Part shown: positions 5,449 through 52,182 of the stretch, one piece after another
Position numbering within the stretch: position 1 is the first letter of the stretch
Layout of the letters: the number at the start of each line of letters is the position of its first letter
Assembly (NCBI GenBank): GCA_040384865.1
Contig: JAZKIM010000004.1
Location: 16,105-73,973 of the forward strand
DNA: 57,869 nt
Source: Patescibacteria group bacterium
GTDB taxonomy: Bacteria; Patescibacteriota; Minisyncoccia; Phycocordibacterales; CAIZLB01
Direction: 5' to 3'
The notes under the pieces: generated by a model
Seen by the model: the letters and a program-made list of their open reading frames with translations, nothing else
What the model was told of the DNA's origin: nothing
Database searches by the model: none
Made by a program: the position numbers and the translations under genes

Positions 5449-5748
5449 TTACGCCGACATTGCCTTTCTTACTTTTTCTATTTGGTTGTCTGATTTTTCC
5501 TTTATTAACACATCGAGATTTTTAATTTTTTCTGCAAGAAACTTTTCCATTTTAGTTTCGTTGCCTGACTGTGTCAGTTCCTCAAATACCACTCTGTCTT
5601 CATCGGAAAGGAGCGTTATCACTTCGAGCGTCACTGCCTTGAGAACATTTTCTCCATACTGAGCAATGATTTGATCTTGAACCTCAGCAGGCACACCACC
5701 TAAGTTCATCTTTTCAACTAAATCATTTCTATTCAAAGTTTGATTCAT
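5449..5748 (-). CDS. hypothetical small helical protein
   Basis: 99-aa ORF between the two giant genes on the same strand, with gaps of 15-25 nt. No motif recognised. Confidence 0.65.
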   Translation of the reverse strand: MNQTLNRNDLVEKMNLGGVPAEVQDQIIAQYGENVLKAVTLEVITLLSDEDRVVFEELTQSGNETKMEKFLAEKIKNLDVLIKEKSDNQIEKVRKAMSA

Positions 5749-5763
5749 TGGTTTATTATATTA

Positions 5764-8433
5764 TTATTTTGTTCCCTTAGGAAATCTATTCATTACCCTC
5801 ATTACATATTCGAAAACATCCTCACCTCTTTTTGGCCGGATTCTTTCTTTAGCAATATCTTTGACCCATTCTTTTGCTGACCTAGCGTCTTGTAATGACA
5901 TATTTTTTATTCCCACCATACTCCGCAGCTCTTCTGGGGTCTTTGCTCTAACTATTTCTGACACCTTCATGCTTGAGAGGGCCTTCCATGATTTGTTGTT
6001 GACGTCACCGAAATATTTTTTTATTTCTGTGGCCATGACGGGGTTTACAGTCTCAATATTTTCCCTGTTAAAGGGAATGAAGTTTTCTTTTGTTTGAGGA
6101 AGTTTTCCTTCAGCAAAAAGATTTGTACCATCTTTGGCGAACTGCTCTGGGTCACTTAATTCTTGTACACCATGAACAGGAAGTGGTGCTATTTTATCCA
6201 TAAAACTTTGGCTAGAAATGGATGTTGGGACGGGATGTTTGATTCGTATCGCCTTTTTTGCGGTTGCTACTAACTTGTTGCTTTCTTTTTCGGCGAGTTG
6301 TTGGGTTTTAATCTCCTGCTGGTGAACTTCCCCACTTGTTACCCCGTGCTCGCTTATCGCTAGTCCTTTGTGGGCAGAGGGGTCGTTTTTTATCTCGGAG
6401 ATAATCGTCGTTGTTGCCTTTCGGGCCACTCTTTTCAAGGCCTTTTCAATTTTTACCTCTTTAAGGGTGTCACTCTGTTTGTCATATATAAATGATATTT
6501 TGTCTCGATTTCCTGCAAACTTATTGATCGAGCGGGGGTGGTGTTTTTCATAATTCGCGATGGCGCGCTCACTCACCCCGTTGTGTTTGAGTGAACCCCA
6601 AATTGAGTTACCACGTTTTCCTAATTTGTCGTTAATCAAAATTTCCTTTTTGATTGTTTTTGGAGCTGATGTGGCGTCTGCGGTTTTTATTATTTCCACA
6701 GGCTTTTTGACCTTAATATCTTCTGGTGGCACCGAAGAAATATCCATCTTGGTTAGTTTTGGGGTGGGTGTCTTTTCGACAACCTTTAGTATTTCTGTCG
6801 GTTTTTGAATTTCAACTTTTTCTGTTACAGGGAATGGTTCTGTCTCAATGGTGGTTTCTTCGATTACAGGATTAGTTGGAGGAATTTCTGTATCAAGTTT
6901 TATTGTGGGATTTATGACGGTCTCTGGATCTAAGGTGGTTACAGCGTCAGGTTCATAGGCATTGTTTGTTTGTTCAGGAACTTCTGCTACGGTATCAGTA
7001 GAAGTGAAAAAACTTTTTATACTTTCCGGAACATGAACATTTTTTATGATCTGACCAACTTCCGCACTAACTAGCCTGCCGAGAACTAGAGATGTGATTC
7101 CTGCGCCTACCGCAAATAATTCTTTGTGTTTCACTAATAAATCATCCTCTAGGCCAGCTTCTTTTCTCTTTGCAGCTCTCTTTAACAAATAGGTTTCGGT
7201 CGAAGCTACAATTCCCGCCGCCACTATCCCTCTTTTTACACTTCTGAGCACGAGGGCTGAAGCAAGAAGTTTTGAACCAAAAGCAGCACCGGCAAGGGCA
7301 CCCAGGCCTAAGCCTACTGCTCCTACGCTGCAGGCCATAAATATCTTCTCCTTTTTAGAAAGATTGTTGTACCAAGTGCCAACACTTTTGAGCGCGTTGA
7401 AAGAGCTTTGCCCTGTTTTTTTCATCATCTCCATCGCTTGTGCTGAAAACGACTTGCCTTCCTCCTTCATTTCGTTCAGTACTGTAAGCGCGGCAATCGT
7501 CTTCTCTGGATTTATTGGGACCTCTTCCCCTTTGTTCTTTGTTCCGCCGGGGAACTTATTAGTTTGTGTTGAAGGGTTTTTCTCTTTGATGGTATTTTGT
7601 ACAGGCACAAACTTTCCAATCTCTGCTGCTTCTGTTTTTTTCTCTCGATCCTCCTTTTCTCGACGCTCTTTTTCCTTCAGATGTATTTTGTGTTTTTCCA
7701 AGTCTGTAGAGGTGGATAGTTCAGATAGATCTCCGAACACAAATTCTTCATACTCATGAGTGAGTTCATTTGAAATCATCGTCTCCTGCTTGTTGTATTT
7801 GGAATCTGTGTTTTGATTTTTGCTCAAACCTTCCGTACCTTCGATAATACGGATCTGCATTTCACCAAGGACATCTCTAATAGTTTCTTCATCTCCTCCG
7901 TTTTTAATTACCACATCTCTAATCTTTGCCACTGATTCCTTCCACACAATAGTAGGCCAGTTCCACAACGCTTCAAGGTCTTCTTTGTCTTTTTTTGGCA
8001 GTTGTACTTTTTTGAATAGTCGTCGAATTTTAAAAATTATGTCTGTGCGCTGTCTTTCTTCTTTGAGCCAGTCATGAGCTATTTTTAGAGCTTTTCTGTA
8101 TTTCTGTACAGCCTCCAAGTATTCGATTTCACATCTTTTAACTGTTTGTTCCACCTCTTCTTTTTCACGGCCGATTGTTTTTTTCTGTTCGACGTCTTTC
8201 TTTTTTACCTGCAGCATAGGATCCTTTTTTTCGGTAACAGGTATTCTTCTTGCTCTTTCGGGTTTCTTTTCTGTATAGCTTTCAGTTGGAGGCAAAACAT
8301 CTGTCTCTATTTTTGAGGCGGGCCGCGAATCTTTCTTTCCTATTTCAGAATTTATTACCGGCGGCACGTATTCTTTGACGGTTTTCATTTGTTTGGGTGT
8401 AAAAAAGACAAATTTGAGGAAATATGAGGCCAT
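5764..8433 (-). CDS. hypothetical large membrane protein (charged N-terminal part, central TM cluster, P/T/E-rich C-terminal part)
   Basis: The ORF is open to 8472, where the track start is a GTG. I prefer the ATG at 8433 because AGGGGG sits 4 nt upstream. Hydrophobic segments are IFMACSVGAVGLGLGALAGAAFG, IVAAGIVAS and LFAVGAGITSLVLGRLV. The C-terminal region is rich in P/T/E/I/K. Confidence 0.75.
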   Translation of the reverse strand: MASYFLKFVFFTPKQMKTVKEYVPPVINSEIGKKDSRPASKIETDVLPPTESYTEKKPERARRIPVTEKKDPMLQVKKKDVEQKKTIGREKEEVEQTVKRCEIEYLEAVQKYRKALKIAHDWLKEERQRTDIIFKIRRLFKKVQLPKKDKEDLEALWNWPTIVWKESVAKIRDVVIKNGGDEETIRDVLGEMQIRIIEGTEGLSKNQNTDSKYNKQETMISNELTHEYEEFVFGDLSELSTSTDLEKHKIHLKEKERREKEDREKKTEAAEIGKFVPVQNTIKEKNPSTQTNKFPGGTKNKGEEVPINPEKTIAALTVLNEMKEEGKSFSAQAMEMMKKTGQSSFNALKSVGTWYNNLSKKEKIFMACSVGAVGLGLGALAGAAFGSKLLASALVLRSVKRGIVAAGIVASTETYLLKRAAKRKEAGLEDDLLVKHKELFAVGAGITSLVLGRLVSAEVGQIIKNVHVPESIKSFFTSTDTVAEVPEQTNNAYEPDAVTTLDPETVINPTIKLDTEIPPTNPVIEETTIETEPFPVTEKVEIQKPTEILKVVEKTPTPKLTKMDISSVPPEDIKVKKPVEIIKTADATSAPKTIKKEILINDKLGKRGNSIWGSLKHNGVSERAIANYEKHHPRSINKFAGNRDKISFIYDKQSDTLKEVKIEKALKRVARKATTTIISEIKNDPSAHKGLAISEHGVTSGEVHQQEIKTQQLAEKESNKLVATAKKAIRIKHPVPTSISSQSFMDKIAPLPVHGVQELSDPEQFAKDGTNLFAEGKLPQTKENFIPFNRENIETVNPVMATEIKKYFGDVNNKSWKALSSMKVSEIVRAKTPEELRSMVGIKNMSLQDARSAKEWVKDIAKERIRPKRGEDVFEYVMRVMNRFPKGTK

Positions 8434-8623: not shown

Positions 8624-9730
8624 ATGAAGCATAAAAAGCGAAAAGCACTAGAAAATGGCTCTATTGCTCACTTTGTGGTGAGAAGCACTGCTGTATTTAT
8701 TGCTATTACAATCATTGGCGGGCCTCTTTTGGCCAATGCTGATGTTTTTTCTTTCATGTCTAAAGCGCTCGGTGATTCATCCGAAGTTTCAACCCAGAAC
8801 GTGGCTATTCCTCAAAATACACAAAAAATGCCTTTGTTACAGGCCCCTACAAATGCTAATCCTCTCCCAAAGAAAGAAACCCAAGATGTTTCAATGGTTG
8901 ATGATGGTACTGCGTTGAGCAATGAAAATGATGCTATTGATGTTCGAGTCACCTCAACGTCAACGGATTCAGGCGAATATCGCCCATCATCTGATCAAAT
9001 TAGCCTTTATACCGTACATAAAGGAGATACACTGCAACAAATTGCTCAAATGTTTGGTGTAACCTCTAATACTATTCTATGGGCGAACGATTTGAAGAAA
9101 GGGCAAGCTATTGTTCCAGGCCAAGTGCTCGTTATTCTTCCCATCTCAGGTATTCGATATGTTGTAAAAAAAGGAGACACTCTAAAAGGTATTGCAAAAG
9201 CTTTCAAGGGAGATGCCGACGATATTTCACGATATAACGGTCTTGATGATTCCTCTCTCGCCGTTGGTGACGAAATCATTATTCCAAACGGTGAATCTTC
9301 TATTCAGGAATCGAAACCTTCTTCTAGTTCTAAGGTTGCAAAAGGTGGTTTCGCGACAGCTATCGGAGGCTCTATAGCTGATCCAAAAGGCTACTTTACC
9401 AGACCTGTTAGTGGAGGTATTCGAACCCAAGGTATTCATGGACACAACGGTGTCGACATTGCTTCTTCGTACGGCACCCCTATACTCGCTGCTGCTTCGG
9501 GTACTGTTGTGATAAGTCGAAGTTCTGGATGGAACGGAGGGTATGGTAATTATGTTGTAATCCAACACTCAAATGGTATGCAAACACTCTATGGTCATAT
9601 GAGTCGGGTGAATGTTTCAGTTGGCGAACAGGTTTCAAAGGGTCAAACTATCGGAGGAATGGGAAATACAGGACAGTCGACAGGTGTTCACCTCCATTTT
9701 GAAGTTCGAGGCGGTAAAAATCCTTTTTAG
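8624..9730 (+). CDS. secreted/membrane-anchored LysM-repeat M23 metallopeptidase
   Basis: Two LysM repeats (YTVHKGDTLQQIAQMFGV..., YVVKKGDTLKGIAKAF...). The M23 core reads HNGVDIA...GNYVVIQHSNGMQTLYGHMS...GNTGQSTGVHLHFEVR. An N-terminal hydrophobic anchor follows the ATG at 8624. The track ORF starts earlier, at 8522. Confidence 0.9.
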   Translation: MKHKKRKALENGSIAHFVVRSTAVFIAITIIGGPLLANADVFSFMSKALGDSSEVSTQNVAIPQNTQKMPLLQAPTNANPLPKKETQDVSMVDDGTALSNENDAIDVRVTSTSTDSGEYRPSSDQISLYTVHKGDTLQQIAQMFGVTSNTILWANDLKKGQAIVPGQVLVILPISGIRYVVKKGDTLKGIAKAFKGDADDISRYNGLDDSSLAVGDEIIIPNGESSIQESKPSSSSKVAKGGFATAIGGSIADPKGYFTRPVSGGIRTQGIHGHNGVDIASSYGTPILAAASGTVVISRSSGWNGGYGNYVVIQHSNGMQTLYGHMSRVNVSVGEQVSKGQTIGGMGNTGQSTGVHLHFEVRGGKNPF

Positions 9731-16396: not shown

Positions 16397-16444
16397 CAAA
16401 TAGAAAAACGCATGTCTTTTTAAAGGCGCGCGTTTTTCTATTTG
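16397..16444 (+). terminator. long hairpin directly after tRNA-Gly(GCC)
   Basis: caaatagaaaaacgc (16397-16411) pairs perfectly with gcgtttttctatttg (16430-16444). That is a 15-bp stem with a U-rich 3' arm. Confidence 0.6.
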
Positions 16445-16566
16445 TTCAGGGAGTATTTAATTAAAGGTAAAAATATTTTTTGACTCAATATAACTATATT
16501 TGTTGATAAATATAGGTTGGCGAGTCCCTCCGTCTCTAAATTGTAGAAATATCTTTTGCACCAACC

Positions 16567-16575
16567 TGTGGATAA
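16567..16575 (-). promoter_or_regulatory. perfect DnaA-box consensus (TGTGGATAA = TTATCCACA on the other strand)
   Basis: Exact 9-mer in the AT-rich spacer. One-mismatch copy tgttgataa at 16501-16509. Another exact TTATCCACA at 14169-14177. Function untested. Confidence 0.3.
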
Positions 16576-16596
16576 CTCGGTGGATATGTGCATAAA

Positions 16597-16614
16597 AGAC
16601 AGAAATTTCTGTCT
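16597..16614. repeat. perfect 18-bp palindrome AGACAGAAATTTCTGTCT
   Basis: Read directly. It lies 22 nt from the DnaA-box-like site, inside a non-coding AT-rich spacer. Confidence 0.8.
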
Positions 16615-17138
16615 AATATAGAAATGATGAAAATTAGTAAAAAAATCAAAAAATGGCTCAGTAGGAACCTGTAAAGTAAAAGACGGTGACAAAACAAGGT
16701 CTTATATTGCATAATTATATGTTTCACGTGCTACATGACATGTTTTATCATTTTAGGTGAATGAAATGTTCCACGATTAACGTTTAAAATAAGAATGGCT
16801 TAAATTAAGGACATCTTAATAATTGGGTTAAGATGTTTCCAGTATGTTTGTGTTATTTATGAAACATGATTAATGGAATTGAGGTTATGTATCGTTAGGA
16901 TGAATTTGCCGCTGTAAAAACATAAGGGACATTGAAGGGAAATGTGTTAATAGATAGGAGATTTCGCGCTATGTAAAAGGACAAGGTGTTATTTAGATGG
17001 TAATAGGAGCGGGGGATTGGTCCTTGTTTCTTCACATCTATTGAAAAATATGTCTGAAAATTATTAATATAGGGCATATTAATTGAGCACGTAGCAATTG
17101 TGTGTTAAGCTACGGCTCTAGATTTTAGGTCTGGTCAT

Positions 17139-17211
17139 CGGGGTGTGGTGTAACGGCTAACATGCTTCACTTGGGCTGAAGTGACTCCGGGTTCGAATCC
17201 CGGCACCCCGA
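17139..17211 (+). tRNA. tRNA-Pro (anticodon UGG)
   Basis: Acceptor cggggtg/caccccg (the C1:G72 pair typical of bacterial tRNA-Pro), anticodon arm cttca-ctTGGgc-tgaag, T arm ccggg-ttcgaat-cccgg. Confidence 0.9.
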
Positions 17212-17335
17212 CAATTAACGGCTAGGACGAGTAGGGTAGCTATCTCGAGCGCTCGAGGTACTTCAAAAGTAGGGGAGAACTTGTTTATTTATGGGTAATA
17301 ATCTCTAGGTTTCTTATATTGGACATTTTTTGTAA

Positions 17336-17367
17336 AGAAAAACGCATCAGCCGAAGCTAATGCGTTT
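17336..17367 (-). terminator. rho-independent terminator of the GC-rich cassette gene
   Basis: The minus-strand RNA reads aaacgcat-t-agc-uucg-gcu-g-augcguuu followed by UUUUC UUU. It lies 57 nt downstream of the stop at 17424. Confidence 0.7.
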
Positions 17368-17423
17368 GTTGAAAGTTTTAAGAGGATTGAACTCTACGGT
17401 TACTTCACCGAGTGGGTTTACCA

Positions 17424-17933
17424 CTATTTACGAAACAGGTGCCAGTTTCCTGGCGACTTGTTGGACGACGAGTTTACGATCGAGTAAACCCTGTCCAAAT
17501 CAAATCGCAACCAGGTAACCAAACCGTAAGGCTTGATCCTTTCCGTGGAGAAGAGCTGGACCATCGTAATGAGGCCATCTGCACCAAAACAGTGCTGATC
17601 GGATCCCAGCTGCTCTGGCAAATCCGCATGCTGTTCTGCACACGAAACCAGTTCCCGCACGTTGGTCGTTTTCAGACCGCTCATCTCGGCATAGCGTTCA
17701 GGATCTTTGTAGTCCTGACTGCCACGGACGAGGACGAACTGCACCTGCTCCACTCCTTCTTCCCGTTGAGCGTAACTATGCTCGATATTGGAGAGCTGGA
17801 GCGGGCAAGAGGTCGGCATCTTGTCCGGGAACTTCTGCACGATCTCGCGCCAGTTCCTGCTGTGGTCGACGGTTGCCGAGAGTTCGATGATCTGGCGGTT
17901 TTTCTGCAAGTAGGCGTGATCGATTGTGTTCAT
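17424..17933 (-). CDS. hypothetical protein encoded in a GC-rich foreign cassette; possibly the frameshifted body of a macro-like domain gene
   Basis: The minus-strand ORF has normal amino-acid composition. The overlapping plus-strand 190-aa ORF is R/L-rich shadow. It has its own consensus promoter and terminator. The ATG is at 17933 (the track TTG start is at 17954). A TGA closes this frame just upstream, while a GTG-initiated N-terminal piece (18054 downward) sits in another frame. Confidence 0.55.
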   Translation of the reverse strand: MNTIDHAYLQKNRQIIELSATVDHSRNWREIVQKFPDKMPTSCPLQLSNIEHSYAQREEGVEQVQFVLVRGSQDYKDPERYAEMSGLKTTNVRELVSCAEQHADLPEQLGSDQHCFGADGLITMVQLFSTERIKPYGLVTWLRFDLDRVYSIVNSSSNKSPGNWHLFRK

Positions 17934-18082
17934 AAGGTGATTGGTTTTTCCCAAGTTTTCTCACACGCAACCCGACAGGGTTAGCTATAAATGTGGTGAT
18001 TATCAAGGGAGGGGAGGCTTCGAAGATTTCCTCCACCCCTTTGACGATCTCCACTGATTTGATGAACTTAACTTCTGAGATA

Positions 18083-18111
18083 ATTATAGCAATAAATATT
18101 CAACTTGTCAA
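18083..18111 (-). promoter_or_regulatory. consensus sigma70-type promoter reading leftward into the GC-rich cassette
   Basis: The minus strand reads TTGACA (18111-18106), then a 17-nt spacer, then TATAAT (18088-18083). Both hexamers match the consensus exactly. Confidence 0.7.
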
Positions 18112-18200
18112 TATACTAATCAATAAAATTGATATATTAGCATTAATATAGCTATATAAATAAGGATATAATAGAAAATATATTATATTCGTCAAAAATA

Positions 18201-18229
18201 TTGACAATATAAAAAGATATCGATATACT
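18201..18229 (+). promoter_or_regulatory. near-consensus promoter for the TrmB-family gene; predicts a leaderless mRNA
   Basis: TTGACA (18201-18206), 17-nt spacer, TATACT (18224-18229). The ATG at 18236 sits 7 nt after the -10 element, with no room for an SD sequence. Confidence 0.65.
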
Positions 18230-18235
18230 TACAAA

Positions 18236-18973
18236 ATGCAAGAAATCATCGAGAATTTGAAGTCTATAGGACTCGAAGACAAAGAAGCTAAGATATATGT
18301 AGCGTTACTCAAATTTGGGGAGGCAACAGTCGGAGATATTGCTGACGAGGCCGGGATTAAGCGCCCTACTACCTATGTTATTCTCGATGAATTGCGCAAG
18401 AAAGGCCTGGTGCTGAAGATTCCCCACGCCAAAAAGCAGGTCTTTCAAGCCAAGACTCCTGACGAGTTCTTCGAGCAGACTGTGGCTAATGTAAATCAAT
18501 TCGAGAAGATATTGCCAAAGCTTCGCTCCATGAATCCGTCCAAGAAAACCATTAAGACACTTTACTTCGAAGGAATCAATGGAATTAAAGAAGCTATGTA
18601 TTATCGAATTGAAGATCTCAAGAATTCGGTAGATGAAGGTTTCTGGGCAAAACATGTGGAAGTATCAAATAAAGTAGTAGAGGTACAAGACGAATGGATT
18701 AAGGCTTTTCAAAAATATAATATATCGATAGGTGGTGTAACTCCCGACCATGAATCAACTAGAATGTATGTTGAAAGGTATAAGGGTATTTACAAAGATT
18801 TCCTTTTCGCTCCTCTCGAGGATTATTCAGCAGATATCTCAATCGAAGTGACAAAGGAATTTGTGCGAATTATCGATGCCCATGATCTCAAGGCGATTAT
18901 CATCGAGAATCCCCGCGTTGTGTACGCACTGGGACAGATTTTCAAGTTAGCGAAAGAGAAGTATAAAAAATAA
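18236..18973 (+). CDS. TrmB-family winged-helix transcriptional regulator
   Basis: The N-terminus LEDKEAKIYVALLKFGEATVGDIADEAGIKRPTTYVILDELRKKGLV is the TrmB-type wHTH. The C-terminal domain of about 150 aa fits that family. Confidence 0.85.
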   Translation: MQEIIENLKSIGLEDKEAKIYVALLKFGEATVGDIADEAGIKRPTTYVILDELRKKGLVLKIPHAKKQVFQAKTPDEFFEQTVANVNQFEKILPKLRSMNPSKKTIKTLYFEGINGIKEAMYYRIEDLKNSVDEGFWAKHVEVSNKVVEVQDEWIKAFQKYNISIGGVTPDHESTRMYVERYKGIYKDFLFAPLEDYSADISIEVTKEFVRIIDAHDLKAIIIENPRVVYALGQIFKLAKEKYKK

Positions 18974-18978
18974 GATAA

Positions 18979-19746
18979 TTAGAGGTTTGTTAAAGACAAA
19001 TACTTTTCTTTTAATGTAATTTTACTTTTAAAACATAGTAGTAGTTCTCTTTTTTCTACACCTGATCCGTCTCTTAAAATAAATTTTGCGTAATTTCGTA
19101 TATTAATATCAACCACGGAAATCTTATCTTCATTGAGTAGTAGCTTCTGAAAATTCTTGAATCTTGCTACCTCTGTTTTAATTTTTTCTTTGATACCAAT
19201 TTCATCGAGATTAATACTGTCTAACAGCATCTCAAATTGTTTTATCAGCTCTTTCTCCTCGATGTAGCCACATTTACACTCCTTATCTTTAGATTTTGTA
19301 CATCCATAGTAGACGTAGCGTTGAGAGCTACCATTTTTGAGTTTCTTCCATTTCTCACAGGCTGATATACCAGACTGGCACAGTCCGCAGGCCATAAGTC
19401 TCGTAAAGGCAAATTCTTGATTTTCAACCCTGAGAATATTACTTTTTACTTGATCCTTGGCTAGGTCAAATAATTCTTTGGTGATAATCGGACTATGCTT
19501 GCCTGTATACCAGTTACCACTTGTGGTAGGGTACTCAAATATTCCGTAGTAGAAATGGTTTTCCAAAATTCTAAATATATTACCTAAGCTTAAATATTTT
19601 CCGTTTCTAGTTTTAAAATTTAAATCAAACCTAAGCCAATGATAGACTTTTCTACCTGACCATTTCTCGTAAGCAACTTTTTTGTAATCAGGAAGTTTTA
19701 CTTCTATTTCCATACTTAATTGATGACAAAACAACAAACCTTGCAT
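18979..19746 (-). pseudogene. large serine recombinase, C-terminal fragment only (recombinase domain, zinc ribbon and coiled coil; catalytic resolvase domain missing)
   Basis: ...YLSLGNIFRILENHFYYGIFEYP...GKHSPIITKELFDLAKDQV...LMACGLCQSGISA...YVYYGCTKSKDKECKCGYIEEKELIKQFE... matches the Recombinase plus Zn-ribbon parts. No S-R catalytic N-domain exists in any frame upstream, and that DNA is occupied by the opposite-strand ORF6N gene. Confidence 0.7.
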
Positions 19747-19851
19747 GGCTATGCAAGACTATCAATTTGTAGTATTGTCGCGTGGGGAATTCTTAGAAAA
19801 TTTAATATTTCTTGAGCGTATCTTCATGTCGGGTACAGTAAGATACTGTAG

Positions 19852-20373
19852 ATGAAAGAAGCCACAATTACAGAAATTCCTCTCAACATTGAACTTATAA
19901 AAGAGAAGATATATATCATCCGAGGGCAGAAGGTGATGTTCGACAGAGATCTCGCTATTCTGTATCAAGTCCCCACCAAACAACTCAATCGCGCGGTCAG
20001 GAGAAATCTCGATAGATTTCCAAACGATTTTATGTTTGAGCTCACAAAAGGTGAAATGGATAACTTGAAGTGCCAAATTGGCACTTCAAGTTATGGCGGC
20101 GCCCGAAAGCCGTCTTTGGCCTTTACGGAGCAAGGCATAGCGATGCTTTCCACTGTTTTGAACAGCAAGAGGGCTATACATGTAAATATTGAAATCATCA
20201 GGATATTCACCAAGCTTCGACAGATGATCGACGCTTACAAGGAACTGCGCGAAAAGGTGGAGGAAATGGAAAAGAATAGCGAGACAAATTTCAAGGAGAT
20301 ATTCAGGGTACTCAGGGCAATATTGGCAGAGGATGAGAAACCTAAAAGCAAGATAGGTTTCAGGCCTGAATAG
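19852..20373 (+). CDS. ORF6N-domain protein (phage/ICE-associated DNA-binding family)
   Basis: IRGQKVMFDRDLAILYQVPTKQLNRAVRRNLDRFPNDFMFELTKGE...GGARKPSLAFTEQGIAMLSTVLNSKRAI is the typical ORF6N core. Confidence 0.85.
   Translation: MKEATITEIPLNIELIKEKIYIIRGQKVMFDRDLAILYQVPTKQLNRAVRRNLDRFPNDFMFELTKGEMDNLKCQIGTSSYGGARKPSLAFTEQGIAMLSTVLNSKRAIHVNIEIIRIFTKLRQMIDAYKELREKVEEMEKNSETNFKEIFRVLRAILAEDEKPKSKIGFRPE
20062..20092. repeat. 31-nt palindrome (15-bp perfect arms around one central base) inside the ORF6N coding sequence
   Basis: aacttgaagtgccaa-a-ttggcacttcaagtt, read directly. Confidence 0.85.
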
Positions 20374-20601
20374 GCATGATTTTAGTAAAAAGTGACAGTC
20401 AACTGTAACTTTAACCTGCAATATGTATCACTTTTTGCCTCAAATGAGACACTGTCAAATATGCTGTTTCCGTGTCTTATTTGCTAGTGCCCGAGATGCT
20501 TCGGTGTGCTATATTGGAAATATTAATAACAGACCTTACTGGTCAAGCTTTAAGAAGAGCTCTGGCTTGAACACTCGACTAGTTTCATAATCTATTTTTT
20601 C

Positions 20602-20925
20602 ATGGAAATGGCCAAGTTTAGAAAGAAAAAAGAGGACTTTGTGTGTGAACATTGCTCTTTTGAAGTGAAAGGGAACGGGTATACAAACCATTGTCCAATA
20701 TGCCTATGGAGTAAGCACGTCGACATAAACCCTGGAGACAGAAAGGCTGAATGTCAGGGGATGATGAAACCTGTCGGCGTGGAGGGAACTACGAATAAAT
20801 ATGTAGTTGTAAATCGTTGCGAGGTTTGTGGATACGAAAAAAGAAACAAAAGTGCTGAAAACGATAACATAGAGGCACTTTTGGTTGTTATTGCTGAAAA
20901 AATAGCGAAGCAGAGCCGTCAATAA
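20602..20925 (+). CDS. RNHCP-domain zinc-ribbon protein
   Basis: FVCEHCSFEVKGNGYTNHCPICLWSKHVD...CEVCGYEK contains the eponymous (R)NHCP motif and paired CxxC. Confidence 0.8.
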   Translation: MEMAKFRKKKEDFVCEHCSFEVKGNGYTNHCPICLWSKHVDINPGDRKAECQGMMKPVGVEGTTNKYVVVNRCEVCGYEKRNKSAENDNIEALLVVIAEKIAKQSRQ

Positions 20926-51234: not shown

Positions 51235-51282
51235 CTTAGAAAAAACACTCATACCAAGAGCGGTAGGGGTGTTTTTTCTAAG
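51235..51282 (+). terminator. terminator after fusA
   Basis: Perfect 14-bp stem pairing cttagaaaaaacac with gtgttttttctaag. Confidence 0.75.
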
Positions 51283-51338
51283 CACACTCCTGATCTATTT
51301 GCGAAAGATTCCACTCGCGTGGTAGGCTTCGGTAAGCT

Positions 51339-51533
51339 ATGCTCACACTCATTCTGCATGCGGATCTCTTGAGATCGGCTAATCAAACGGAAAGGCTTTA
51401 CAGAGTGATAGAGGGTTTGGATGAAACATTCCTTTTGACCTCTGATCTTGCTGCTCTTAAGAAAAAAGGGCAACCATTTCAGATAATCAAAAGTGAAAAG
51501 TATTATCGCAAGCATCTCCATCAGGCCTTGTAA
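51339..51533 (+). CDS. hypothetical small protein in the GC-rich insert
   Basis: 64-aa ORF with an ATG start, followed 7 nt later by a GC hairpin plus T-run. There is no SD, and a longer antisense ORF competes with it (51249-51521). Confidence 0.35.
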   Translation: MLTLILHADLLRSANQTERLYRVIEGLDETFLLTSDLAALKKKGQPFQIIKSEKYYRKHLHQAL

Positions 51534-51539
51534 GTATTT

Positions 51540-51571
51540 CAGCGCGCCCGTTAAGGCGCGCTGTACTTTTT
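51540..51571 (+). terminator. GC-rich hairpin terminator
   Basis: cagcgcgcc-cgttaa-ggcgcgctg followed by tacttttta. Confidence 0.65.
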
Positions 51572-51587
51572 ATAAAAAATGGATATT

Positions 51588-51628
51588 AAAAACACCCTGC
51601 GCGGTTCAATTCCGCGCAGGGTGTTTTT
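51588..51628 (-). terminator. 17-bp perfect hairpin with a T-loop-like 7-nt loop; terminator of the 180-aa gene
   Basis: aaaaacaccctgcgcgg-TTCAATT-ccgcgcagggtgttttt. It lies 12 nt from the stop at 51640. Confidence 0.75.
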
Positions 51629-51639
51629 GATGAATGTTG

Positions 51640-52182
51640 TTAGAGGAGCGTTTTGGCGATACCTGCCCATCCGTTTTCTACGCGGTGGACGGCTTGATGG
51701 CAGCGTCTTGTTTTCGACGGCTGCTTGGTGGACATGATGTACAAAGTTCCGACCACAGGGAGTTTGTCGGCGATATCTTCCCGCGTAAGGAGAGCGTGTG
51801 TTACGCCAATGCGGTGAAGGTCAGCGCTGATCGTTCCGACCCTATAAAATCGAAGGTCCGCCGGTTTCATCCCGCTTAAACGCAAGATGTCAGATGTTTC
51901 AACCCATCGACGATCGTACGGTTCTTTTCCTTTGGCTCCGATGAGTAGCACTCGATTGAAGCACCGGTTTGCGACGATTTGACGAAGGAAACAAAATGCT
52001 CCGCTAGTGGCGCGCCGACCTTTCGAACGGGGATTGTACACGGCGGAATGATGGCTCATTTCACTCGGGGAAATGATGGGGCCATCAAGGAAGACGGCAA
52101 GGATTTTCGGTATTTTCATAACTTTTCTAAGGGGTTCTTTTTGGTTGGGGTGGTTGTTTTTGGTCTGATAGAAAATATACAT
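51640..52182 (-). CDS. hypothetical protein in the GC-rich insert (weak, unverified resemblance to HAD/NT5C-like layout)
   Basis: 180-aa ORF, with an alternative ATG at 52119 (MKIPKILAVFLDGPII...). It uses CGC/CGG/CGT/AGG Arg codons, unlike the host genes. A strong terminator follows. The plus-strand ORFs here look like shadows. Confidence 0.6.
   Translation of the reverse strand: MYIFYQTKNNHPNQKEPLRKVMKIPKILAVFLDGPIISPSEMSHHSAVYNPRSKGRRATSGAFCFLRQIVANRCFNRVLLIGAKGKEPYDRRWVETSDILRLSGMKPADLRFYRVGTISADLHRIGVTHALLTREDIADKLPVVGTLYIMSTKQPSKTRRCHQAVHRVENGWAGIAKTLL

Follow-up and report, generated by a model that had tools for sequence, protein, structure and literature searches.

An insertion beside the tRNA-Pro(UGG) gene of a Patescibacteria genome: a probable immobile serine-recombinase element with a GC-rich cassette gene

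The locus described here lies in a stretch of 57,869 nt (hereafter the window, whose numbering is used throughout) of contig JAZKIM010000004.1, assembly GCA_040384865.1, from a Patescibacteria group bacterium; the mean GC content of the window is 0.413 (about 41%). Starting from a tRNA-Pro(UGG) gene, a GC-rich segment is followed by a gene for a TrmB-family regulator (+), the remnant of a large serine recombinase (LSR) gene (-), an ORF6N-domain gene (+) and an RNHCP gene (+). A preliminary description of this DNA had placed these five items immediately 3' of the tRNA gene, and all were recovered by tRNA calling, GC profiling and domain searches. The DNA from 17213 to about 20585, some 3.4 kb, is an insertion. 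It is read here as an integrated element, probably one that can no longer move. The features are collected in Table 1.

Table 1 Features at the tRNA-Pro locus, in order of position in the window
Feature	Position	Strand	Evidence or remark
tRNA-Pro(UGG), integration target	17139-17212	+	tRNA call; homology with L001 stops exactly at 17212
Element-side junction motif GCTAGGACGAGTAGGGTAG	17221-17239	+	Common to the intact L085 element (8669-8687)
Palindrome CTCGAGCGCTCGAG after the junction motif	17244-17257		
Cargo intrinsic terminator, 12-bp stem and T-run	17340-17367	-	Conserved with L216 101-201 and L215 2893-2956
Conserved RNA motif starting at the cargo stop codon (UAG, 17426-17424)	17369-17429	-	Six-copy hand alignment
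GC-rich cargo gene, 169-aa near-orphan	17424-17933	-	GC3 0.69; coding-signature tests against L081
Structured 5' leader of cargo mRNA, long imperfect hairpin	17934-18076	-	-46.3 kcal/mol, z=-3.1
Cargo promoter TTGACA-17-TATAAT with TG (extended -10)	18083-18111	-	12/12 sigma-70; kept in TrmB orthologue loci
Palindrome (C/T)GTCA-N7-TGACA, putative operator	18190-18206		Overlaps TrmB -35 box; conserved in TrmB intergenic regions
TrmB promoter TTGACA-17-TATACT	18201-18229	+	11/12 promoter match
TrmB-family winged-helix regulator, 245 aa	18236-18973	+	PF01978, 57.8 bits (cut-off 25.6)
LSR remnant	18979-19713 (ORF as listed 18979-19746)	-	PF07508, PF13408, no PF00239
Native recombinase leader with palindrome TTGCATAGCCATGCAA	19719-19760	-	89% identical to block upstream of L085 recombinase
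Secondary insertion with ORF6N gene, about 580 bp	19802-20381 (CDS 19852-20373)	+	Splits recombinase upstream region
Recombinase-upstream block, far part	20383-20553	-	Collinear with L085 5760-5893
Degenerate tRNA-Pro 3'-end copy, candidate far attachment-site remnant	20554-20585	+	Collinear with L085 repeat (5734-5760)
RNHCP gene	20602-20925	+	PF12647, 99.5 bits

The surroundings of the insertion were compared in 80 loci around cca homologues (comparison loci are denoted by L and a number). A backbone comprising RNase Y, HU, tRNA-Gly(UCC), a protease, RNHCP, tRNA-Pro, tRNA-Gly(GCC), tRNA-Arg and cca recurs in dozens of relatives. In L001, the closest of these (82% amino acid identity in cca and 95% in RNase Y), RNHCP begins 38 bp past tRNA-Pro, which makes it an empty site, and nucleotide homology with the window (BLASTN) breaks off at the last base of the tRNA gene. 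The spacing between tRNA-Pro and RNHCP is at most 126 bp in 10 of 30 relatives and reaches 3.8 kb elsewhere; unrelated inserts occupy the same tRNA-Pro site in L004, L013, L014, L039, L043, L048 and L052. Since the spacing varies and the inserts of the relatives are unrelated, the site can be regarded as an insertion hotspot, and the presence/absence polymorphism at the tRNA 3' end is that of a tRNA-targeted integrative element. RNHCP, which had been counted among the genes of the islet, follows tRNA-Pro directly in relatives and hence belongs to the conserved backbone. The end of the islet likewise has to be moved, from the proposed 20400 to about 20585. The eroded integrated element of the preliminary description is borne out by the empty site of L001 and by an intact homologue at the same tRNA-Pro in L085, which is described below.

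The recombinase remnant (a 244-aa protein, P0003 in the database) retains the recombinase domain (PF07508, 36.9 bits) and the zinc beta-ribbon (PF13408, 26.9 bits), both above their cut-offs. No match to the resolvase catalytic domain of LSRs with its nucleophilic serine (PF00239) was found in it, and tblastn detected no trace of a resolvase domain elsewhere in the window; an intact one would have spoken against erosion. The C-terminal part, where a coiled coil would be expected, aligns end to end with those of intact relatives, and the alignment with the L085 protein begins at residue 204 of the latter. The gene had been called decapitated; the loss of the catalytic domain stands, but the head of the gene is still in place. 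The 37 nt directly upstream of the L085 start codon are 89% identical to positions 19755-19719 of the window, the start ATGGAAATA is conserved with L085 at 19713-19705, the native start codon being the ATG at 19713-19711, and about 195 codons (about 585 bp) are absent, in frame, in a gapped alignment with L085. Because the leader and the start codon are conserved and the codons that follow are missing in frame, it was concluded that the catalytic domain was lost through an internal deletion and not through 5' truncation. The product consists of Met-Glu-Ile-Glu and a short linker, followed by residues ~204-437, that is, the recombinase domain, the zinc ribbon and the C-terminal part. Its 244 codons are free of stops and frameshifts, the protein is 73-75% identical to intact relatives, and the zinc-ribbon cysteines are retained.

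Copies without the catalytic domain were also found inside contigs elsewhere, with breakpoints at residue 206 (L167) and 177 (L168). Two short homologues were rejected as counterparts of the deleted form: P0096, which has a similar 'MEI' start, is preceded by DNA of an unrelated gene and is truncated differently, and P0022, considered as a short family form, is simply cut by contig ends. In L168, a tRNA-like sequence (5840-5925, -), probably tRNA-Ser when read by eye, abuts residue ~177 of the N-terminally halved copy, which looks like a rearrangement that fused a tRNA directly to the recombinase ORF. In addition, three independent assemblies (L169, L170 and L171, position 1 of each) break at one point in the middle of the same recombinase gene, and this hints at a repeat or at active rearrangement in that place.

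A total of 5895 homologues of the remnant were found, mostly of about 438-440 aa and with PF00239, PF07508 and PF13408; those with a source name come from Paceibacterota and related groups. The genomic context was studied in 114 loci (80 metagenomic loci and 34 IMG/VR viral contigs), in which the nearest tRNA gene within 5 kb was recorded. It lay downstream on the opposite strand in 44, upstream in two and downstream on the same strand in none; the recombinase thus reads toward the tRNA 3' end in 44 of 46 cases, even though more upstream sequence was scanned. The tRNAs concerned are various (Ser, Gln, Arg, Glu, Asp, Trp, Asn), and throughout the family the recombinase and the tRNA enclose the cargo. 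The same arrangement is seen in the window, where the remnant points to tRNA-Pro at a distance of 1767 bp.

An intact counterpart is present in L085 (JGI sample 3300009514), where a 438-aa recombinase, 73% identical to the remnant, sits at the same tRNA-Pro. The order in L085 is cca, tRNA-Arg, tRNA-Gly, UPF0102, a partial tRNA copy (5734-5760), the recombinase, a 156-aa orphan (-), TrmB (+), tRNA-Pro (-) and RNHCP. The direct repeat of the tRNA end in this locus has a perfect 10-bp core (10/10), CCCGACAAAT, with p=0.005. The cca and RNase Y proteins of the window and L085 are only 56% and 62% identical, and the higher similarity of the recombinases suggests that the elements reached this target separately and were not inherited vertically.

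The boundaries of the insertion were compared with those of L085. The first 27 nt past tRNA-Pro are identical at 20 positions and include the shared junction motif, which is possibly a recombinase half-site. A repeat of the tRNA-Pro 3' end had not been seen by eye at the far side; a degenerate copy does lie at that boundary, recognisable as such only through the homology with L085. Direct alignment of the far boundary with the tRNA end and spacer of L001 was not significant. Upstream of most other family members no direct repeat of the tRNA end was found either, as is to be expected for serine recombinases. The CAA found in place of CCA after the tRNA-Pro discriminator was considered as a mark of crossover and rejected, as CAA is common in the clade, empty sites included.

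The ORF6N gene entered the region separately. The block upstream of the recombinase is unbroken in L085 (5725-5963) and divided in the window into 19719-19801 and 20383-20601, with the far part still recognisable (66 of 88 positions identical, and a score of 58 where shuffles reached 28 at most). Because the ORF6N segment interrupts a block that L085 has in one piece, it was concluded to be a later insertion; it is bordered by imperfect direct repeats of 8-9 bp (TTAGAAAAT at 19793-19801 and TTAGTAAAAAG at 20382-20392). The protein carries the ORF6N domain (PF10543, 112 bits), matches PHROG anti-repressor families and matches PADLOC PDC-S05 over its full length (PDLC04856, E=2e-56, covering 6-174 of 177), which places it with ORF6N/KilA-N-type, phage anti-repressor-like proteins. 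In E. coli, one representative of PDC-S05 is reported to have lowered the plating of T7 and T5 by a factor of about 1000 (bioRxiv 10.1101/2024.09.26.614923). The tested representative is described as having a RhuM domain, whereas no RhuM was detected in the ORF6N protein of the window, and protection against phages by the latter may be taken as a lead from the literature on another representative.

The GC-rich segment was described as a cassette of alien base composition, and this is confirmed by the GC content of 0.518 at 17401-18000 (z=3.3), the highest of any 600-nt window in the 57.9 kb. Long overlapping ORFs are present on both strands (190 and 176 aa). A search of 5.8 billion proteins gave a single homologue of the 169-aa cargo protein, with 77% identity and encoded on L081, a contig of 1.3 kb. 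Substitutions between the two genes are distributed over the codon positions as 27/18/57, the indels, of 3 and 12 nt, preserve the reading frame and stops interrupt the antisense ORF in L081; from these three properties it was concluded that the minus-strand ORF is the gene, and the substitution pattern argues for purifying selection. Its GC1/2/3 values are 0.54/0.36/0.69, while the GC3 of native genes is 0.36-0.43, indicating a foreign mutational signature and not an amino-acid effect. Neither the protein nor the cargo ORFs of relatives matched Pfam, NCBIfam, PHROGs or PADLOC, and the GC-rich region had no BLAST match in a plasmid database. Sequence searches of the PDB with the protein and with a two-sequence profile returned noise only, the profile recovered from 1.84 billion representative proteins only itself and a spurious eukaryotic sushi-repeat protein, and the IMG/VR viral contigs gave no match; hhalign found the cargos of L085 and L010 to be unrelated to it.

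Other GC-rich segments were noted. Very GC-rich, ORF-bearing segments adjoin tRNA-Pro in L014 (6138-7026, GC 0.59-0.64) and L052 (3519-5774, 0.51-0.55), without Pfam matches and without a TrmB gene. Within the window, a second outlier (51249-52182, GC 0.51, z=3.1) lies between EF-G and a prephenate-dehydrogenase-like gene and contains a 180-aa ORF (51640-52182, -; GC3 0.54, no Pfam match), which may be another foreign gene.

The regulator that diverges from the cargo gene has a TrmB-type winged helix. Its residues 80-245 have no Pfam match, and the C-terminal sugar-binding domain of archaeal TrmB/TrmBL1 was thus not found; scores against NCBIfam equivalogs were 24-38 bits, far below cut-offs of 500-650. 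The family (about 245 aa) has at least 158 members, of which every source-named one comes from Patescibacteria lineages, and a scan of viral contigs revealed none. A promoter-equipped cassette with a divergent regulator had been proposed, and both near-consensus promoters are indeed present. The TrmB mRNA is probably leaderless, since 6 nt separate the end of the -10 box from the ATG. The leader of the cargo mRNA matches nothing by BLASTN and is not common to L216, L215 or L081. A second, distant TrmB paralogue occurs at about 27225 (-), 25% identical to the TrmB of L085 and with a divergent 90-aa ORF.

A BLASTN analysis of 17100-19100 showed that the region is a mosaic. The part from the cargo promoter through TrmB (18083-18973) matches L216 at 75%, with shorter matches inside it at 69-72% in L215 (18168-18972), L217 (18184-18972) and L010 (18191-18651 and 18833-18909). 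At the other end, the 3' motif and terminator (17328-17428) are 87% identical to L216, and identity to L215 is 92% over 17366-17429. The cargo ORF between these parts has L081 as its only match. The corresponding slot in L216, L215 and L010 holds unrelated ORFs, up to four in a row and mostly GC-rich (0.43-0.57, as compared with a locus GC of 0.39-0.41); the cargo ORF can therefore be considered an exchangeable cassette. In 18 of 19 loci of the TrmB family the divergent neighbour exceeds the TrmB gene in GC content, and these neighbours are almost all unrelated to each other.

The 3' end of the cassette is marked by a conserved RNA motif, TAGTGGTAAAyCCACTCGG..., which begins at the stop codon of the cassette ORF, or a few bases past it, in the window, L081, L010, L215 and L216. 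It consists of a hairpin P1, a hairpin P2 with a loop that pairs downstream to give a pseudoknot, and an inserted hairpin P3. In the alignment of the two-hairpin pseudoknot, 97.9% of cells are paired, seven pairs are changed on both sides and none of 500 shuffles did as well; the alignment comprises six sequences, three of them close, and was made by hand and fitted to the structure. An internal form is followed by a hammerhead ribozyme and a terminal form by a terminator, the window having the terminal form. The motif has no Rfam match, and a scan of IMG/VR with the exact pattern gave none. Rfam searches of the window (gathering threshold) and of the islet (E<=1) returned only tRNAs and noise.

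Type III hammerhead ribozymes separate the cassettes in L010, L215 and L216; their catalytic cores are visible by eye, and they score with Hammerhead_3 (Rfam RF00008) at 50 bits (L010), 47.5 and 43.4 bits (L215) and 36.5 bits (L216). None with the type III core (CUGAnGA ... GAAA, three stems) was found in the window. A strict core pattern matched seven times in 6 of 218 sequences (217 loci and the window, 2.4 Mb). One match, in L057, is probably spurious as it lies at the start of cca; the five convincing loci (L001, L006, L010, L215 and L216) all hold a TrmB-family gene too. The cores in L001, the closest relative of the window, and L006 are at 1267-1290 and 931-954, respectively. A conserved long-hairpin leader of about 90 nt (GUUGAGUuUGGAAG...CUUCCAAcc.CACUCAAC) was observed in L216 (~440-560 and 1169-1290) and L010 (5352-5470), where it lies after each hammerhead and ahead of successive cassette ORFs; nothing in Rfam matches it. 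The leader in the window has another sequence and likewise folds into a long hairpin.

Taken together, we consider it likely, with a probability of roughly 80%, that the insertion is one of a family of small integrated islands and proviruses which are driven by LSRs and occur across the Patescibacteria, and that it is now immobile. Elements of this family are seated at tRNA 3' ends, with the recombinase gene distal to the tRNA and reading toward it. In the window, the deletion of about 585 bp removed the catalytic domain and the far attachment repeat appears to have decayed, and for these two reasons the element should be unable to move by itself. The ORF6N (PDC-S05-like) segment of about 580 bp would have entered the upstream region of the recombinase later. 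The cargo can be pictured as a self-contained expression frame made up of TrmB, the divergent foreign GC-rich ORF, the stop-codon pseudoknot and the terminator, in which TrmB may repress both itself and the cargo via the palindrome over the promoters. That the retained module is functional, as had been supposed, is supported by intact ORFs, consensus promoters, a terminator, the apparent purifying selection on the cargo and the retention of the TrmB frame in other genomes. Several observations weigh against an integrated element of this kind. Taken alone, the near junction motif reaches only p about 0.1 and the far copy of the tRNA end is not significant, with 211 of 1000 shuffles scoring as well; among 38 other loci with sequence upstream of the recombinase, short perfect tRNA-end repeats were found only in L085 and L153. 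The closest LSR relatives (71-75% identical; L082-L084 and L087-L094) do not adjoin tRNA-Pro. No family could be detected for the cargo protein, and its AlphaFold2 model (two-sequence alignment; pLDDT 40) is unusable. Finally, the TrmB frame also occurs without any recombinase in L010, L215 and L217 and may have arrived separately instead of as cargo of the recombinase element.

This last point leads to the view that the islet was assembled by at least three independent arrivals at the tRNA-Pro hotspot, those of the recombinase element, the TrmB frame and the ORF6N segment, and is not one element. The places of the recombinase-free frames are elsewhere in the chromosome, seven relatives have unrelated DNA inserted at tRNA-Pro and the ORF6N segment has its own flanking repeats, all of which would fit; we nevertheless regard such an assembly as somewhat unlikely, as L085 also has TrmB and an orphan between recombinase and tRNA-Pro and cargo occupies this position family-wide. 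The order of events is all that distinguishes it from a single element, and for ORF6N the two views coincide. A more distant view is that the whole region is ancestral and that relatives with tRNA-Pro beside RNHCP have lost it. The related arrangement in the distant L085 is in its favor, but empty sites are scattered over the clade, with the closest relative among them, the recombinase is more similar to that of L085 than cca and RNase Y are, which indicates transfer, and the GC3 of the cargo is foreign; ancestry is thus very improbable. Even less can be said for the idea that the GC-rich segment is a structured non-coding RNA, with ORFs as by-products of high GC. Long ORFs on both strands, the structured leader and 3' motif adjoining them and the fact that GC-rich islands in AT-rich genomes are often RNAs could be cited for it. 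It is largely refuted by the excess of third-position changes, the in-frame indels, the antisense stops in L081 and a GC3 far above GC2, and the Rfam search of the islet gave no match for it.

Two further proposals concern what the parts of the islet might now do. The recombinase without its catalytic domain could be kept as a DNA-binding protein which blocks related elements at tRNA-Pro or regulates the islet. Its deletion is in frame, it retains the native leader, start codon and upstream palindrome, its reading frame and cysteines are intact at high identity to complete relatives, and other catalytic-domain-less copies exist inside contigs (L167, L168). Against this, chance alone makes one deletion in three in frame, the other short copies differ in breakpoint and context, several being mere contig-end cuts, and the deleted form is represented by one sequence only; such a role therefore appears doubtful. 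Equally speculative is the proposal that a platform specific to Patescibacteria, on which foreign GC-rich ORFs are captured, expressed and swapped almost ORF-precisely, is made up of TrmB, its bidirectional promoter and the terminal unit of stop-codon pseudoknot and terminator; it is put forward as an improbable reading. According to it, hammerheads would cut the transcripts of arrays into single-gene mRNAs, and the stop-codon motif would be the cassette boundary, serving as a site of RNA processing or recombination.

The integrated element favored here resembles known tRNA-linked islands and prophage remnants in its insertion at a tRNA 3' end, candidate partial copy of the tRNA end at the far side, foreign composition, disabled recombinase and empty sites. 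Such islands classically carry P4-type tyrosine integrases; the islet differs in having an LSR, in its size of only 3.4 kb and in its host from the Patescibacteria (CPR). With LSR elements (phiC31 and Bxb1 prophages, SCCmec CcrB, Anabaena XisF) its intact relatives share the resolvase/recombinase/zinc-ribbon architecture, and the remnant itself shows weak NCBIfam similarity to CcrB and XisF and matches the PHROG 95 integrase. The family differs from these in being short (about 440 aa) and consistently convergent with a tRNA gene, and the copy in the window, without the catalytic domain, is not a functional member. The slot or array of unrelated, compositionally foreign ORFs framed by a divergent gene and a promoter recalls the integron, by analogy only, as does the presence of one cassette in two different frames (window and L081). 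Unlike in the integron, an RNA motif at the stop codon and ribozymes form the boundaries, TrmB is the divergent gene and the cassette has its own promoter and terminator; no tyrosine-recombinase domain was found in the ORFs of the islet by Pfam and NCBIfam scans, and no search was aimed at attC or IntI.

Clustered hammerheads which flank variable genes near integrase genes have been reported in prophages, and their purpose was left open (Perreault et al. 2011, PMC3088659); the A. tumefaciens example of that article depicts a marR regulator gene within the same context. The TrmB-frame arrays of L010, L215 and L216 fit this description; the single cassette of the window differs in that it has no hammerhead and ends in the stop-codon motif and a terminator. 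Neither the conserved TrmB frame nor the stop-codon motif was found in the passages of the article that were consulted. Full-text literature searches on hammerheads in CPR bacteria and on serine recombinases in Patescibacteria gave no results, and no description of the TrmB frame, the motif or the Patescibacteria setting was found.

Outside the insertion, the spacer on the other side of tRNA-Pro was also inspected. In most relatives (L004, L013, L014, L016, L039, L040, L043, L048, L052 and L085) a UPF0102 (YraN-like) gene lies between tRNA-Gly and tRNA-Pro; no trace of it was found by tblastn in 16398-17138 of the window, and L001 has the same ORF-free spacer. The AT-rich, non-coding gap of about 700 bp between tRNA-Gly(GCC) and tRNA-Pro (16440-17138) contains three DnaA-box-like sites within 95 nt, at 16501-16509, 16567-16575 (a perfect TTATCCACA) and 16587-16595. 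A block CTGTGGATAACT.GGTGGATATGTG.ATAAAAGACA in this gap is kept in L001 and present in a diverged form in L064, and the GC skew of the window is positive from about 16 kb onward. It may be that replication starts in this gap, or that the gap is a site of regulation by DnaA.

A decayed island beside a tRNA gene is in itself an ordinary finding. What is unusual is a very large family of short serine recombinases in Patescibacteria that is consistently tied to tRNA 3' ends, a niche usually ascribed to tyrosine integrases. It is also unusual that the copy in the window lost exactly its catalytic domain, in frame and with its own expression signals kept, which makes it a natural candidate for a protein that only binds DNA. 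The same holds for the cassette, which occupies the variable slot of a conserved TrmB frame, a slot filled in other genomes by unrelated GC-rich orphans with hammerheads between them, and which carries a previously undescribed pseudoknot at its stop codon. The cargo belongs to a recurrent, poorly understood cassette system, which raises the interest of the islet. The frame offers a compact, testable system for the purpose of bacterial hammerheads and for the uptake and control of foreign genes in symbionts with reduced genomes; if it were indeed a platform for gene capture, it would be functionally analogous to an integron that lacks the integron integrase, and bacterial hammerheads would have a defined role.

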